From Malacoplasma sp. (lineage in GTDB: Bacteria > Bacillota_I > Bacilli_A > Mycoplasmatales > Mycoplasmoidaceae), in NCBI GenBank assembly GCA_045225975.1, contig JBGVBX010000024.1:15497-79496 (forward strand): a DNA stretch of 64,000 nt, written 5' to 3'. Positions 5,264 through 64,000 of the stretch are shown here, in pieces (within the stretch, counting starts at the first letter, position 1; every line of letters starts with the position of its first letter). The position numbers and the translations under genes are program-made. The notes under the pieces were generated by a model, which was not told where the DNA came from, ran no database searches, and was given only the letters and a program-made list of their open reading frames with translations.

Positions 5264-6445
5264 ATGAAATACATATTACATATTGATTTAAATGCTTTTT
5301 TTGCATCTGTTGAAGAATTACTCAACCCAAAATTAAAATCTAAACCATTTGCTGTAGCAGGTAAGACATCACGTAATTCAATAGTTAGTTCAGCCAACTA
5401 TATTGCTAGACAGTTTGGTGTAAAAGCTGCAATGCCAATCTTTAAAGCTAAGGAACTTTGTCGTAATTTAATTGTAGTTAGTCATCATTTTGATGAATAT
5501 GAGAAATATTCAAATTTATTTATTGATTTTATTTGTCAAAAATTGACCAATAATATTGAAATTATGTCTATTGATGAATGTTTTGCTGATGTTACACATC
5601 TATGCAAAACTCCTAGTGAAGCTATTAATGTTGCAAAAATTATTCAAAGAAAACTTCTTCATCAAACAGGATTAAAATGTTCTATTGGTGTTTCATACAA
5701 TAAGTTTTTAGCTAAGATGGCTAGTGATTTGCGTAAACCATATGGTATCACTTCTATTTTTAGTAAGAAAGATATTGAGCAATATATTTGACCACTACCA
5801 GTTGAAGATATGTTTTTAGTTGGCAAAGCATCCTCAAAGAAATTAAAAGATCATCAAATAAAAACAATTAGAGATATTGCCGATGAGAAAAATGTAGATA
5901 TTCTTAAGGATGTTTTTCAGAACCAATGAGAAGTTTATTTTTTACATGTTAACGGAATAGGAGATGATGAACTTGATCATTCCCATAACATTCCTAAATC
6001 ATTAAGTAATAGTGAAACATTTCTAACTGACACTAATAATTTAGATGAAATATATCTTAAAATTGAGGAATTAACCAAATTAATGGTAGATCGTATGAAT
6101 TCTTATGACTTAGTTGGTAAAAGATTGTCATTATCTATTAAATATCCAGATTTTAAAATGACTACAAAAAATTATTCTTCGCCTAAATTATTAAGTGACT
6201 ATTTTGAAATTGTTCAAATTCTAAAAAATTTATATGTTGATAATTTTCAAAATGCAACAATTAGATTAATTGGTGTTGGTATTTCACAGTTACAATTTAA
6301 CAAAAAGTTAAATACTATGATTTTTGATGATTATGTTGAAGAAGATAAGATTGTTGAAGATCAATATCAAATTATTAAAAAAGATATTAATGATAAATTA
6401 AAGTTAGATATTATTGATATTGCTTCCAAGAAATTAAATAGTTAG
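5264..6445 (+). CDS. dinB: DNA polymerase IV (Y-family translesion polymerase)
   Basis: ILHIDLNAFFASVE and IEIMSIDECFADVT are Y-family motifs. Fragments 5264-5791 and 6083-6445 share a frame. Confidence 0.9.
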
Positions 6446-10352: not shown

Positions 10353-12761
10353 ATGTACAACCACAACTTAATTGAGAAAAAATGGCAGAAATATTGGAGC
10401 GAACACAAAACTTATAAGTTTGTTGATGATGATTCTAAACCAAAAGCATATATCTTGGATATGTTTCCTTATCCAAGTGGACAAGGATTACATGTAGGAC
10501 ATCCAAAAGGATATACTGCAACTGATGTTGTTTCAAGATTTAAACACTTTAATGGTTATAGTGTTCTTCATCCAATTGGTTGAGATGCATTCGGTTTACC
10601 TGCAGAACAATATGCAATTAATACTAATAATCACCCTGCAAAATTTACTCAGGAAAATATTAAACATTTTCGTAAACAACTTCAAATGATTGGTTTTAGT
10701 TATGATTATGATAAAGAAGTTGATACAACAGATCCAAAATATTACAAATGAACACAATGAATATTTTCAAAGTTATTCGAAAATGGTTTGGCAGAAATAA
10801 GAGATGTAGATGTAAACTGGTGTGAAAAACTAGGTACAGTTTTATCAAATGAGGAAGTTTTAAATAAAGATGGTAAAATGGTTTCTGAACGAGGAGAATT
10901 TCCTGTAGTTAGAAAACCAATGCGTCAATGAGTTCTAAAAATTACTAAGTATGCTGATAAACTAATTGAAGGGTTGGATTTAATTGATTGACCAGAATCA
11001 TTAAAAGCAATTCAGAGGAAATGAATTGGTAGATCAACTGGTGCATTAATTAGTTTTAAAACTAATGCTAATGTTGATTTAGAAGTATTTACAACAAGAC
11101 CAGATACATTATTCGGAGTAACTTATTTAGCTATAGCCCCAGACCATGATGATGTTAATAAGTTTATTACTAGTGAAAATAAATCAAAGTGTTTTGACTA
11201 CATTACTAAAGCTAAATCAAAAAGTGATTTGGAAAGAAAGGCAAATACTAAAGTTCAAACTGGTGTATTTTCTGGTTCATATGCAATCCATCCAATAACT
11301 AAAAATAAGTTACCAATTTATATTTGTGACTATATTTTAAAAGATTATGCTACTGGTTCAATAATGGCTGTTCCTGCTCATGATGAACGTGATTATAATT
11401 TTGCCAACAAATATAAATTACCAATTATAAAAGTTATTGATGTTGATGATAAACAATTACCATATACTAATGATGGCAAACATATTAATTCCGATTTCTT
11501 AAATGGTTTGAATAACAAATCAGCAACAAAATTAATGCTTGATTATTTAATCAAGCATAAATTAGGTAAATCTCATGTTACTTATAAAATGAAAGATTGA
11601 TTATTTAGTCGTCAAAGATATTGAGGTGAACCATTTCCAATTATTTATGATGAAAATGATAAACCGCACCTTGTCAATGATTTACCATTAATTCTCCCTG
11701 AATGTGACGATTATAAACCTTCAAATAATGGTAGAAGTCCATTATCTAAATTAACAAAATGAGTTAATATAACAATCAATAATAAAAAATATCATCGAGA
11801 AACAAATACTATGCCTCAATGAGCTGGTAGTTGCTGATATTATTTAAGTTATTTACTAAAACAACCAGATCATTCTTATGTTGATTTAAATTCAAAAAAA
11901 GCATATGAATTATTTAAACGATGATTACCAGTAGATTTATATGTCGGTGGTCAAGAACATGCTGTTTTACATTTATTGTATGCTCGTTTTTGACACCGTT
12001 TCTTATATGACATTAAAGTAGTTCCTACTCCTGAACCATTTTATCGACTTATGAATCAGGGAATGATTCTAGGTGAAAATGGTGAAAAGATGTCAAAATC
12101 TCGTGGGAATGTAATTAATCCAGATGAGATTATTAAAACTCATGGCGGTGATGCATTAAGACTATATGAAATGTTTATGGGTCCATTAAATGCATCATTA
12201 CCATGAACTGAGGATGGATTAAATGGTGTAAGAAAATGGTTAGATCGTGTTTATCGTTTATTTGAAATGAAAATTAAAGATTTTTCAAACAAAACTAATG
12301 AATCATTAGATTATGCATATAACTTATTTGTAAAAAATGTAACTAATAATATTGATAAAAATAATTTCAATGTCGCGATTAGTGATATGATGATCTTTAT
12401 TAATGCATGCTATGGTTTAGAAAAATTAAATAAAGAATATATGCATAATTTCTTAATTGTGCTTTCTTGTTATGCACCGCATTTAGCTGAGGAATTAAAT
12501 CAAATGATGGGATATAAAGAATCTATCTATCATTCTGTATGACCTAAATTTGATAAATCAAAACTTATATTATCACAAATGTCAATACCAATTATGATTA
12601 ATGGTAAACTTCGTGATGTAATAAAAGTTGATGTTTCAATTACTGAACAAGAAATTATTGCTTTAGTTAAAACTCAACCAAAAATTATTAAGTTTATTGA
12701 AAATAAATCAATAAAGAAAATAATTTATGTAAAAAATAAAATAGTTAACATTTTAATTTAA
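10353..12761 (+). CDS. leuS: Leucyl-tRNA synthetase
   Basis: [15 protein letters not shown] is a LeuRS-type N-terminus, with [13 protein letters not shown] (HIGH) and KMSKSRGN (KMSKS) motifs. Four fragments lie in frame 0, giving 802 aa. Confidence 0.95.
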
Positions 12762-19056: not shown

Positions 19057-21762
<2,706 letters not shown>

Positions 21763-31055: not shown

Positions 31056-31134
31056 GGCGTTTATGGTGAAGCCTGGTTAACACAACTGACTGTGAATCAG
31101 CCATGCGTGGGTCCGAATCCCACTAAACGCCCCA
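31056..31134 (+). tRNA. tRNA-His (anticodon GTG) with encoded G-1 and an encoded 3' CCA
   Basis: I folded the cloverleaf by hand. The acceptor is GCGTTTA/TAAACGC, with an extra 5' G opposite discriminator C. The anticodon loop is CTGTGAA and the T arm is GTGGG-TCCGAAT-CCCAC. Confidence 0.85.
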
Positions 31135-31175: not shown

Positions 31176-31475
31176 GTTATTTATAGTTGTTGGTCTTAAA
31201 TACGACAATAATTTTGTAAAACATGAACTATTTTTATGATAGCTTTATCTTAATATGAATTTAAAAAATATGATGATATTGTTTCGTCCTTTTGCCATTG
31301 ATAATAACTTTTGTAACTTATTATTTGGTTCATATATGCCTATCATTTTACAACAGAAAATTTTATTACCAACTAAAGATAAAACAAAATAAAATTAATA
31401 AGATTAAAATTTTTAAAATTTCAATTATTTTGAAATTAAATATCTATCTTATTAAATTTGATTTAACAATTCAGA

Positions 31476-32747
31476 TCATTTAATGAAGTGAATTTTTAAT
31501 CTGTCTTCTAGAAGCAATTTGGAAAATAAATTTTTACCTTTATCTTTGTTACTAAAAGATTTTCCATATTCATGGACCAATTTATAAATATTGCTAAAAT
31601 TGCAAAATTTAGAGTGATTCATATCATTTTTATCTGACGGATATACAAAATGTAAAACCACATTATTAGAGTAAAGGTCAATTCTATCAAATATTGCTTG
31701 AAAATATGAATAATCATTTTCTGATAAGGAATGACCATAAAAATATATATCTACATTATCTACATTATTATCAAATATCAATGAATTATCATTTTCATTG
31801 TTAGCTCTGATTTTAGCTACTTTATAAGATTTACTAAACTCATAAAACAAATGATTATCAGAATTTTTAGTATCATCAATGCCTATCACTATTGATGGTG
31901 ATTCACCATTATTATCCATTTTTTGCATGCATCCATGAATATTAATATATTTAATTGATCAGTTTTTATACCTACGATATCCATTTTTTTTAAATGCATT
32001 TCCAATTTTATCTAAGATTTTTTCTGAATTACAAGTTGTATAATTGAAGCTCAAACAAAAGATATTATTAGTCACTAATTTTCTATGGTCGATAAATTTG
32101 TAAATATATGCTGCTCAATGTTTTAATAATTCATTACTAAAATCGTCTTCGTTTGTTATAGAAAACAAATAGTCATTAAATTTATTTTCAAAATGCCTAA
32201 GCGATTTTTCTATTATTGATTTTAATTCACTTTTGTTTCCTAACAGCAATTTTTTGATATTAGCCATTCCTTCAATGAAATAATTATTTAATATTACCAT
32301 TTCACCCATACCAAAATTTCTATCTAATATTCCTTGAAAATTTAAACATGAGCGTTCATGATAAGTTCTTAATATAGAAATTAAAGTTGTTTCCACATCT
32401 GATCATTTTGCATTTTTAAGATCTTCCAAATCTTTTATATTTTTTTCTTTAAATTTGGTGAAATTTCAGAGTAAATATAAAAATATAAAGAATTTTTCGT
32501 TCAATGAATTCAAGAACACTTTGGAATTTATCTGGTAGTTTCAATTTTTGGTTGGGAAGAGAAAAAATATCAAAAAGCGAAATGTATCTCCTTCTAAATA
32601 TATATCATATAAGGTACTTATTAATTTTTCATCTTTATTAAAATATCTATCAACTATAAAATCATAAAAGTTTGATTTGAGACCAAGATTCAAATCAAAT
32701 CCATTTCCTACTATAAAAATATAATTTTTTTGATCAATATTTTTCAT
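31476..32747 (-). CDS. AbiH-family (abortive infection) protein homologue
   Basis: Three in-frame fragments join through five TGA codons to give 423 aa. The signature blocks are IFIVGNGFDLNLGLKSNFYDF, YINIHGC and IYFYGHSLSENDYSYFQAIF. Confidence 0.7.
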
Positions 32748-32883
32748 ATGTAAAATAAATACATTTTTTATAATGTATTAAATATTTTAAGATAATATTT
32801 ATTATTTTTGCTCATTTTTGCAATACTATTCAAAATTTCCATAAATATAAAATATATTTATATATAATAATTTCATAAAACAT

Positions 32884-32911
32884 AGAAGCCTCCCATGGCT
32901 TCTTTTTATTT
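32884..32911 (+). promoter_or_regulatory. Terminator-shaped stem-loop in the rpmG leader
   Basis: AGAAGCC-TCCCAT-GGCTTCT is followed by TTTTTATTT and ends 10 nt before the rpmG ATG. TATAAT at 32863-32868 lies upstream. Confidence 0.4.
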
Positions 32912-32920
32912 GAAAGTTTT

Positions 32921-33067
32921 ATGAAGATAAAAGTCCCATTATTATGTAGTGAGTGTAATTCAAGAAATTACCACATTAAAAAGGAAAAATCTAGTTCAAA
33001 AAGAATTGAATTGAGAAAATATTGTCCACATTGTAAAAAGGTGACTGTTCATAAAGAATCAAGGTAA
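32921..33067 (+). CDS. rpmG: 50S ribosomal protein L33
   Basis: The 48-aa protein MKIKVPLLCSECNSRNYHIKKEKSSSKRIELRKYCPHCKKVTVHKESR has the CxxC...CxxC motif. It is below the length cutoff of the ORF track. Confidence 0.9.
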   Translation: MKIKVPLLCSECNSRNYHIKKEKSSSKRIELRKYCPHCKKVTVHKESR

Positions 33068-33068
33068 T

Positions 33069-33992
33069 ATGGAAAAAGACAAAAAAAGAGAACAAAAACG
33101 TGCAGAAAAAGAAAAAAGAAAAGCAGAATTTGATGAATTAAACCATCAAAGAGCTTTAAAATATAAAAAATTACAAGATACAAAAAAAGCTGAAAAGCAA
33201 AATTATAAGAAAAAAGCTAAAAAACTAAAACTTGAATACAAAGATAATTTACGTAAAATTAAATCTGATAATTCTAGAGAATTAAAAACCATATTAGCTA
33301 ATATAAAGACTTTAAATGGTTCAGGATTTGAAAATGAAGCAGATAAAATCAAAAAAGAAAATATAGCTAATTTAAAAAAGAAATTATCTGATCTTGAAAT
33401 GGAATATAAAGAGAATTTATTTTCAATAAAAATGTATATGTTATATGAAATTGCTAAAAATCAAGTAACAGAAAAACAACAGAAAAAAGGAAAAATGAAT
33501 GCTGATAAGAAATTAGCCTACCATATCTATCACAAAAAAATGAAAGTAATTGATAATATTTACAACCAGAAGGTTAATGAAATTTCAAAAGGACATCAAG
33601 ACCAAATTGATGCATACAATAAAAAGAAAGCAGAATTTACTTCTCAAAATAAAAAGAATAAAAAATCCATTGAATATAAACAGAAATTGGATGAATTCCG
33701 TACTCAATATATAAAAATTAATCTTGATCGCGAATCAAAATTAATTGAAAACAAAATTATTTATAAAAATACATGTGCTCAAGCATTACATGAGAGAGAT
33801 CTATCATATGATAATGAATTAGACACAGGTTTTAAATTTAGGAGATGATGATATGGAATTGGTAAAGAATTTCAAAGAATGTCATGGTCTACATATAAAA
33901 GAACATTTAAAGATTTCTGAATTGTAATCTTTGTAAGTCTCATTCTTGCAAGCATTTTTATGTTACTAGATTATATATTGACATTATTTTAA
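33069..33992 (+). CDS. secE: Preprotein translocase subunit SecE with a Lys/Glu-rich N-terminal extension of about 250 aa
   Basis: The C-terminal 55 aa, ...GKEFQRMSWSTYKRTFKDFWIVIFVSLILASIFMLLDYILTLF, form a SecE-type TM segment. The position between rpmG and nusG matches conserved synteny. Confidence 0.75.
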
Positions 33993-63069: not shown

Positions 63070-63154
63070 TGGTGCACATGAAGAGACTCGAACTCTTACT
63101 CCGTTAAGAATTAGATCCTTAGTCTAACGCGTATACCAATTCCGCCACATGTGC
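63070..63154 (-). tRNA. tRNA-Leu, class II, anticodon AAG, with an encoded CCA
   Basis: I folded it by hand on the minus strand. The acceptor is GCACATG/CATGTGC, the anticodon arm is TTAGA-CTAAGGA-TCTAA, there is a long variable arm, and the T arm is AAGAG-TTCGAGT-CTCTT. The molecule is 85 nt. Confidence 0.85.
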
Positions 63155-63796: not shown

Positions 63797-64000
63797 TTAC
63801 TCTTTTAGATTATTAACTTTAATTACTCTATCAAGTCTATTGCCTAAATTTAGCACTTCTTTTTCAATTCGTGTATTAAATTCTTCTTGCTTATCAAGTC
63901 TTTTGTTAATATTATCACTAAACTCTTTAAATCAAGCTGGAGCTTTAGCTCTTGGTTTAGTTGTAGGCCCACCTTTAGACTTAATCCTACTTAACTTAAT
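63797..64000 (-). CDS. Hypothetical protein, C-terminal part only; the 5' end lies outside the window
   Basis: The minus-strand frame is open from the window edge to TAA 63797-63799. The sequence ...KGGPTTKPRAKAPAWFKEFSDNINKRLDKQEEFNTRIEKEVLNLGNRLDRVIKVNNLKE is a coiled-coil tail. Confidence 0.45.

Follow-up and report, generated by a model that had tools for sequence, protein, structure and literature searches.

What gene occupies the gap between tRNA-His and rpmG in this Mollicute chromosome, and what might it do there? We analysed a 64-kb stretch of Malacoplasma sp. DNA (64,000 nucleotides of contig JBGVBX010000024.1, hereafter the window, whose positions are used below unless a locus is named) in which a single minus-strand open reading frame (ORF) in that gap encodes a protein of the AbiH abortive-infection family. 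The reading that we favour, at a probability of roughly 0.6 for the statement as a whole, is that of an intact AbiH defence gene that lies in a decayed integrase island and whose product depletes NAD+. That the gene belongs to the AbiH family and sits in a decayed island we consider very likely, and the NAD+-depletion mechanism, taken alone, falls slightly short of even odds. AbiH is known already as a one-gene anti-phage family, with activity in Lactococcus, S. thermophilus and Vibrio (PMC13064643; PMC12322248; bioRxiv 10.1101/2024.06.14.598830; bioRxiv 10.1101/2024.09.18.613514), and the window gene represents a new host group. What is new is a diverged AbiH clade in rumen Mycoplasmataceae that sits in small integrase-marked hotspots with apparent allele exchange. 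A validated one-gene defence family is thereby extended into wall-less bacteria that use genetic code 4 and have very small genomes; the immune repertoire of Mollicutes has been described mostly as restriction–modification (R-M) and CRISPR (PMC13375369).

The AbiH gene and its genetic code

The gene was delimited as follows:
31452–32747, minus strand: abiH coding sequence, 431 amino acids (aa) in code-4 translation, with the ATG at 32747 and a TAA stop at 31454–31452

The window certainly uses genetic code 4. Its G+C content is 26.4%, long housekeeping ORFs extend across the whole of it once TGA is read as tryptophan, and two of these ORFs (10353–12761 and 19057–21762) contain 15 in-frame TGA codons each. 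The TGA at 31478–31476 is consequently a tryptophan codon and not the abiH stop. It encodes W424 (HFIKWSELL), which is conserved in at least 90% of Mollicute homologues, and is followed by 8 further codons before the TAA. Direct evidence that abiH itself is read with code 4 comes from W115, a residue that is invariant across the AbiH family and TGA-encoded in the window gene. In its code-4 translation abiH has six in-frame TGA codons and no TGG, and TGA encodes tryptophan within abiH in all of the nearest homologues as well (the six closest homologous loci examined). A sequence-only reading of this DNA had recognised one minus-strand frame joined through TGA codons, as we do, and had proposed that every tryptophan codon is TGA and that the gene evolved inside code-4 lineages, which these data bear out. 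Its count of 423 aa and five TGA codons gives way to 431 aa and six, and the end coordinate that it gave is the sixth TGA codon, the coding sequence running on to 31452. An identical protein (P0001) with the same neighbours was present in three independent assemblies.

Membership in the AbiH family, also proposed in that reading, was established by a profile search, in which the protein matched Pfam AbiH (PF14253) nearly from end to end (residues 10–363 on profile positions 1–256 of 260; E = 5.9e-17) and well over the threshold (63.1 bits, the gathering score being 30.9). An alignment of 102 family sequences has 21 invariant and 31 near-invariant columns, and the window protein carries the conserved residue in every one of them. 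The three motif blocks quoted earlier are real and map to such columns (G14, N15, G16, F17 and D18; N269, H271 and G272; F336–L341, D345–Q350, F353 and D354); the conserved family blocks present in the window protein are GNGFD at the N-terminus, FNYT together with NxHG in the centre, F/YGHSL..DYSYFQ..FD towards the C-terminus and a distal NL..KLLLE.R, and the conserved residues kept include W115, E119, E187, N235, H271, D291, K306, H339, D345 and D354. Plasmid-borne relatives from Enterococcus, Lactiplantibacillus, Listeria and other Bacilli are 27–29% identical over ~97% of the length and, where annotated, are named AbiH family protein; identity to AbiH homologues of Bacilli and Actinobacteria is ~25–32%. 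With AbiH of Lactococcus lactis biovar diacetylactis S94 the window protein shares the full-length PF14253 match, all signature blocks and the invariant residues, and its gene is likewise chromosomal and apparently a single gene with no conserved partner. The lactococcal gene is reported to be found largely on integrative conjugative elements (ICEs; PMC13064643), and the window gene also lies on mobile DNA. The two differ in the TGA-encoded tryptophans and the wall-less code-4 host of the window gene. They also differ in size: lactococcal AbiH has 346 aa, and the window protein is ~85 residues longer, mostly through a helical insert.

Standard pipelines can miss such genes. The PADLOC AbiH model PDLC02345, which matches 85 of the 102 family members at E <= 0.01, gave no match to the window protein at E <= 1, so that the PADLOC check suggested in the earlier reading does not detect this AbiH; the miss is in keeping with the disagreement between PADLOC and DefenseFinder on AbiH (PMC12322248). 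An NCBIfam search of the protein returned no matching model. Pipelines may pass over the window gene because translation table 11 fragments its ORF and the PADLOC AbiH model fails. Neither AbiH nor the integrase described below had a match in IMG/VR or among GenBank phages, and PHROGs gave only a family of unknown function, for the AbiH N-terminus, leaving a prophage origin without support.

The gap between tRNA-His and rpmG

The gap and its borders contain the following features:
31057–31134, plus strand: tRNA-His (GTG), called by ARAGORN and Rfam; convergent with abiH; conserved left border, also present in L020
31144–31167: terminator hairpin of tRNA-His (terminator scan)
31176–32850, unstranded: genome-specific segment relative to RUG14531, variable gap content; the flanks match L020 up to 31175 and again from 32851
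31207–31224 and 32866–32883, plus strand: left and right copies of a 16/18 direct repeat (AATAATTTTGTAAAACAT; repeat search)
31270–31333, minus strand: tyrosine integrase pseudogene relic (tblastn and alignments)
31334–31441, minus strand: conserved non-coding segment that precedes the integrase in related cassettes, ~81% nucleotide (nt) identity to L004 7615–7775
32748–32799, minus strand: remaining 5' end of the cassette, comprising the leader plus the -10-proximal portion of the abiH promoter (homology to L011 and L007)
32884–32903, both strands: bidirectional terminator-like GC-rich hairpin, AGAAGCC-N6-GGCTTCT with a T-run (terminator scan), kept in RUG206
32921–33067, plus strand: rpmG (L33, 48 aa), divergent from abiH; conserved right border, with orthologues in L019 and L020

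The abiH stop lies 317 nt from tRNA-His, in place of the 340 nt given earlier, and the abiH start lies 173 nt from the rpmG ATG (32921), as had been stated. What had been described as unusually long non-coding DNA is a decayed tyrosine-integrase module downstream and a truncated cassette end upstream, and the statement that no integrase is present holds for an intact gene only, a recognisable integrase relic occupying ~31441–31270. DNA similarity to other loci reaches ~170 nt downstream of abiH, to 31282, and since it matches the integrase leader and first codons, the long spacer is an integrase pseudogene stub with its conserved leader. The leader piece, which is probably the int promoter or a recombination region, is 81% identical to L004 7615–7775 even though identity between the AbiH proteins is just 38%; the L004 locus has a 129-aa ORF inserted between abiH and its copy of the piece. 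The relic begins with an ATG at 31333–31331 and consists of 8 codons (MNQIISYK), a 1-nt deletion and ~12 recognisable codons (LLSMAKGRN), with similarity lost near 31270. Its counterpart in the related locus L005 has ~300 codons with one frameshift and contains the tyrosine-recombinase boxes LLCSGMRIGELASI and HVLRRTKSS…LGNTLRTVMNHYI. With the frameshift bridged, the L005 gene matched the PHROG integrase families phrog_1 and phrog_216 (E ~3e-10) and Pfam Phage_integrase at E = 6e-6 and 26.5 bits, just under the gathering score of 27.1. A tyrosine recombinase is present at the island edge in the window, as a relic only.

Other contents of the 317-nt spacer were considered and rejected. The Rfam scan found tRNA only and nothing in this spacer, its RNA folding z score was -1.3 and no covariation appeared in alifold, which speaks against a structured or antitoxin RNA; an RNA partner of a type III toxin–antitoxin system (ToxIN/AbiQ-like) was likewise not found, with no Rfam match and no spacer repeats beside that z score. 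A hidden partner gene was also rejected, as tblastn with the 129-aa ORF of L004 and a 165-aa ORF of L012 gave noise only; the true tblastn similarity in the spacer is the integrase 5' region, crossing reading frames. The window cassette contains no intact neighbouring ORF.

Upstream of abiH, homology stops at 32799 (against L011) and 32789 (against L007), ~50 nt past the ORF. Four related loci share a promoter composed of TTGTCA, a palindrome (TCAC-N3-7-GTGA) and TATAAAAT:
L011 ~2610–2650, L007 ~5385–5425, L016 ~640–680 and L004 ~5930–5970: abiH promoter whose -35 (TTGTCA) and -10 (TATAAAAT) boxes enclose a palindromic operator

The operator half-sites co-vary across loci (TAGTCAC/GTGACTA, ATTCACC/GGTGAAT and ATTCAC/GTGAAT), which suggests repressor control. 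In the window this promoter is kept from the right edge of the palindrome onward, and host flank takes the place of the -35 box and the left half-site.

The accessory status assigned to abiH in the sequence-only reading was supported by a survey of the same site in relatives, found by scanning species-representative genomes with the window NusG (n = 2). These are RUG206 (L019, 'uncultured Mycoplasmataceae'; 92.9% nt identity over 3.5 kb) and RUG14531 (L020, 'uncultured Ureaplasma sp.'; 78% nt identity), and the gap content differs in both. The gene order in RUG14531 is ORF91, two extra genes, tRNA-His, a 766-aa lipoprotein-like gene, rpmG, a 312-aa ORF and nusG, so that abiH is absent from its tRNA-His/rpmG gap and the lipoprotein-like gene (L020 3389–5689, absent from the window) stands there instead. 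Between ORF91 and tRNA-His, L020 642–3123 carries ORFs of 225 and 592 aa that are also absent from the window. Because RUG14531 has such genes on both sides of the tRNA, the whole tRNA-His neighbourhood appears plastic. The hairpin at 32884–32903, 17 nt upstream of the rpmG start, probably insulates rpmG from the gap cargo.

In RUG206 the DNA adjoining the rpmG flank does not match AbiH. Homology to the window starts at 32806, a few bases from the end of cassette homology at 32799, and to the left of it this short contig contains the last ~57 nt of the same integrase family and then a 'p116' gene. This stretch from the int 3' end to p116 is 83% identical to L005 3131–3308, where p116 follows the integrase. 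The window (abiH, int 5' end) and RUG206 (int 3' end, p116) look like complementary deletion products of an L005-type abiH–int–p116 element in this one gap. A further fragment, the C-terminal 91 residues of a 'p116'-like protein (63800–64000, minus strand, running off the window end, near tRNA-Leu at 63070–63154), is 46% identical to L005 3202–3552 (E = 5e-15) and would be a second trace of this mobile-element family in the genome.

The right copy of the 16/18 repeat (32866–32883) sits in host flanking DNA that L019 and L020 also conserve, and when the two flanks were shuffled with their composition preserved, 2 of 300 trials produced a match of 16/18 or better; the repeat is possibly an att-like duplication, suggestive only. 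Duplication of the tRNA-His 3' end as an att site was considered as well, and the repeat search found none. Like tRNA-adjacent integrase-marked or defence islands (P4-like hotspots), including the genomic islands of mycoplasmas (PMC7466169), the locus has a variable segment on the tRNA side and a tyrosine integrase at its edge, its cargo differs among close relatives, and R-M and toxin genes neighbour related loci. Unlike them, the window element is tiny (~1.7 kb) and decayed, only the weak 16/18 repeat brackets it, and the integrase relic of several relatives is a conserved N-terminal fragment. We propose that abiH arrived as cargo of a small integrase-bearing island that inserted in the variable hotspot between tRNA-His and rpmG, and that later decay would have cut the integrase to a frameshifted 5' stub and truncated the native promoter and operator while the abiH ORF was kept.

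Selection, fold and the NAD+ question

Synonymous divergence (dS) of abiH is 1.0–1.6 in most pairs and ~0.3 (0.29–0.37) against L011, and that of the adjacent integrase module is 0.15–0.44, indicating that the abiH alleles are old and the integrase module is much younger. Judged from its substitution pattern, the intact abiH ORF is under purifying selection. The ratio of nonsynonymous to synonymous divergence (omega, dN/dS) is 0.09–0.21 for residues 331–431 and 0.3–0.7 for residues 1–330, and identity to five Mollicute homologues is 62–92% in the former region and 23–63% in residues 41–220. In the comparison with L011, the last 100 residues have an omega of 0.09 and residues 1–330 one of 0.73. 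Recent recombination as the source of the conserved abiH 3' end was rejected; dS is as saturated there as elsewhere, and the conservation is therefore attributed to selection. An effector joined to a sensing module would be expected to combine a conserved core and a fast-evolving insert in this way. With ~10 diverged alleles that combine a conserved, putatively catalytic C-terminus and a fast helical insert, the clade offers a natural series for the question of which region of AbiH senses phage.

A confident AlphaFold2 (AF2) model built with the 102-sequence alignment (predicted local distance difference test score, pLDDT, 90.2; predicted template modelling score, pTM, 0.90) contains six strands that alternate with helices (5–13, 225–233, 264–269, 331–337, 362–370 and 417–422) and a large helical insertion at ~41–218. 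The conserved motifs lie at strand ends: G14–D18 after strand 5–13, N235 after 225–233, H271-Gly after 264–269 and GHS after the fourth strand. N235 and H271, which are invariant in the family, may be equivalent to the catalytic Asn and His of SIR2. AbiH has been grouped with ThsA, DSR2 and the SIR2 proteins associated with pAgo as 'SIRim' (bioRxiv 10.1101/2024.09.18.613514), and a Vibrio AbiH is a one-gene system with a SIR2-like domain that gives 5.7 logs of protection and is inhibited by two phage proteins (bioRxiv 10.1101/2024.06.14.598830). The earlier description of the window gene as a candidate for a new defence function was overstated, since AbiH is a one-gene system already established and placed by several groups among SIR2-like proteins. 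With SIRim effectors (ThsA of Thoeris, DSR1/DSR2, SIR2-HerA and SIR2-APAZ/pAgo) the window protein shares the Rossmann-like core, the Gly-rich loop, and an Asn and a His-Gly on consecutive strand ends. Its Asn-to-His spacing of 36 residues is close to that of N112 and H152 in ThsA. A variable inserted sensor region is a further likeness, and an abortive-infection outcome has been reported for AbiH. Unlike those effectors, it gave no significant profile or Foldseek match and has no fused SLOG, HerA or APAZ partner.

The six-stranded Rossmann-like core is proposed to be an NAD+-consuming effector because the literature assigns its motif order to the SIRim group. The helical insertion of ~180 residues (~41–218), the fastest-evolving part of the protein, would act as a sensor or as an autoinhibitory module; on phage infection the effector would be released, NAD+ depleted and the infection aborted. 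Several results weigh against this proposal. The mechanism of AbiH is listed as unknown (PMC13064643; PMC12322248). Foldseek with the full model against the PDB gave no match at E <= 0.001, the top matches being generic alpha/beta enzymes (E = 0.036), and SeThsA (7uxt_B) came out at E = 0.28 and a template modelling (TM) score of 0.23; the C-terminal half modelled alone, a mediocre model with a pLDDT of 69, gave nothing. No biochemical activity, NADase included, has to our knowledge been shown for any AbiH, and we know of no phage of this organism. An hhalign comparison with a thin, two-sequence CobB/Sir2Af1 profile reached 0.3% probability and aligned only the HG motif (NVHG to IHMHG). No SIR2-type family appeared for the 102 members among the best 25 of the 77 matched Pfam families (E <= 10), and no SIR2 model among their PADLOC matches (E <= 0.01); a PDB profile search with AbiH gave no SIR2 match, and the best BFVD match was an unnamed 214-aa viral protein (E = 1.3e-3). 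SIR2 homology is thus without support from the profile, Foldseek, BFVD, hhalign and weak-match scans. As the SIR2 link was not reproduced, the NADase mechanism is drawn from the literature, with motif order and fold class as its only support here.

These negatives feed an alternative that we regard as somewhat unlikely, in which this AbiH-family protein has a chemistry other than SIR2-type NAD+ hydrolysis, for example one directed at nucleotides or nucleic acids on a Rossmann-like scaffold. Beside the want of any significant structural or profile match to SIR2, it draws on the SIRim study itself, in which AbiH homologues were retrieved separately with PF14253 and added to the matches of the iterative sirim search (bioRxiv 10.1101/2024.09.18.613514), and on invariant polar residues that have no assigned role (E119, E187, D291, K306, H339, D345 and D354). 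The placement of N235 and H271 on strand ends argues for NAD+ chemistry instead. That AbiH mainly serves a mobile element as an addiction or stabilisation toxin, or bars plasmids or ICEs, rather than acting against phage, we hold to be very unlikely. The gene is always tied to integrase or mobile-element DNA, neighbouring ToxN and R-M genes can also stabilise elements, and lactococcal abiH reportedly lies largely on ICEs (PMC13064643); yet no conserved antitoxin-like partner accompanies it, the small downstream ORFs varying by locus and being absent in the window, no structured RNA partner was found by Rfam or folding, and direct anti-phage activity of AbiH homologues has been published in three genera.

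Expression of abiH in the window is itself doubtful, since the -35 box and operator of its relatives are missing and a promoter scan was not above chance (24 sites against 21 expected). One reading, which we consider unlikely, is that of a silent relic: an intact ORF that lost its promoter in island decay, is unexpressed and is turning into a pseudogene. Both cassette ends are eroded, with the operator and -35 missing upstream and int frameshifted and truncated downstream, promoter-like sites are no commoner than in shuffled sequence, and Mollicute genomes are prone to deletion. Set against this, the 431 abiH codons contain no frameshift or premature stop while the adjacent int was destroyed, all invariant AbiH residues are kept, and the protein and its arrangement are identical in three separate assemblies; moreover, sequences resembling a -10 box are readily available in AT-rich Mollicute DNA, and the native promoter still has its -10-proximal part. 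We retain an AbiH defence gene with a putative NAD+-depleting product as the preferred reading. The decayed island and truncated promoter leave the activity of the window copy unproven, and these features, with an uncultured host and no known phage, limit its practical value.

Mollicute homologues and neighbouring genes

The nearest homologues range from 73% down to 38% identity (P0002/P0124, P0004/P0125, P0005/P0128, P0007/P0131 and P0010), and all lie on metagenome contigs of 23–27% G+C, several of them from named rumen assembly sets. They sit at other genomic sites than the window gene, mostly beside R-M genes:
L012: abiH with type I hsdR-hsdM-hsdS
L017: abiH with hsdM-hsdS
L011: abiH with an EcoRI-like methylase and an HNH protein
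L004: abiH with an Eco57I-like methylase and a SMEK_N giant protein

L005 holds a locus of the same type as L004, and there a second AbiH paralogue, which is divergent, and ToxN follow a few kb downstream. The paralogue lacks the GNGFD N-terminus (Pfam AbiH, E = 8.6e-5), and the toxin matches PF13958 at E = 4e-23. This R-M and toxin neighbourhood of the relatives supports a defence role for the Mollicute AbiH clade. The description of the gene as 'lone' applies to the decayed window copy and not to the clade, because several close homologues have a small downstream ORF and R-M neighbours.

Scanning metagenomes with the Mollicute AbiH alignment added two informative loci, L022 and L023, both adjacent to rpsD. 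L007, L016, L022 and L023 have in common their place beside rpsD and an integrase stub of ~110 codons, and differ in their abiH alleles and upstream neighbours:
L007 6858–7167, L016 2149–2461, L022 3191–3475 and L023 ~1108–1430: integrase N-terminal fragment of ~110 aa beside rpsD, without the catalytic domain

With a dN/dS of ~0.2–0.5, the fragment is under some constraint, and it could be either a domesticated DNA-binding protein or a relic in slow decay. It is conceivable, though we rate it quite improbable, that the abiH alleles of rumen Mycoplasmataceae are exchangeable cassettes beside a conserved integrase stub, in hotspots bounded by tRNA and ribosomal-protein genes. Should the integrase fragment or another operator-binding factor regulate abiH, the outcome would be a Mollicute-specific regulated AbiH module together with a cassette-swapping mechanism for defence genes in minimal genomes.

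L005 1–6373 (and L004) forms a compact defence island on a rumen Mollicute contig, with the order Eco57I-like methylase, abiH, 129-aa ORF, frameshifted integrase, two p116-like genes, AbiH paralogue and ToxN. The small ORFs just downstream of abiH in L004 (7238–7627, 129 aa) and L012 (7320–7817, 165 aa) are unrelated in sequence, and abiH of other relatives has no downstream ORF. Both had no significant Pfam match; they are predicted to be helical and contain an Rx4H motif (RIYYCH and RNEVFH, respectively) reminiscent of HEPN domains. Beyond the right border of the gap, an ORF of 307 aa (33069–33992) stands between rpmG and nusG, a place normally taken by a short secE. Its N-terminus is extended by a long Lys/Glu-rich stretch, and its C-terminal part has one hydrophobic segment. 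This ORF is conserved in RUG206 and RUG14531, its counterpart in the latter being the 312-aa ORF.

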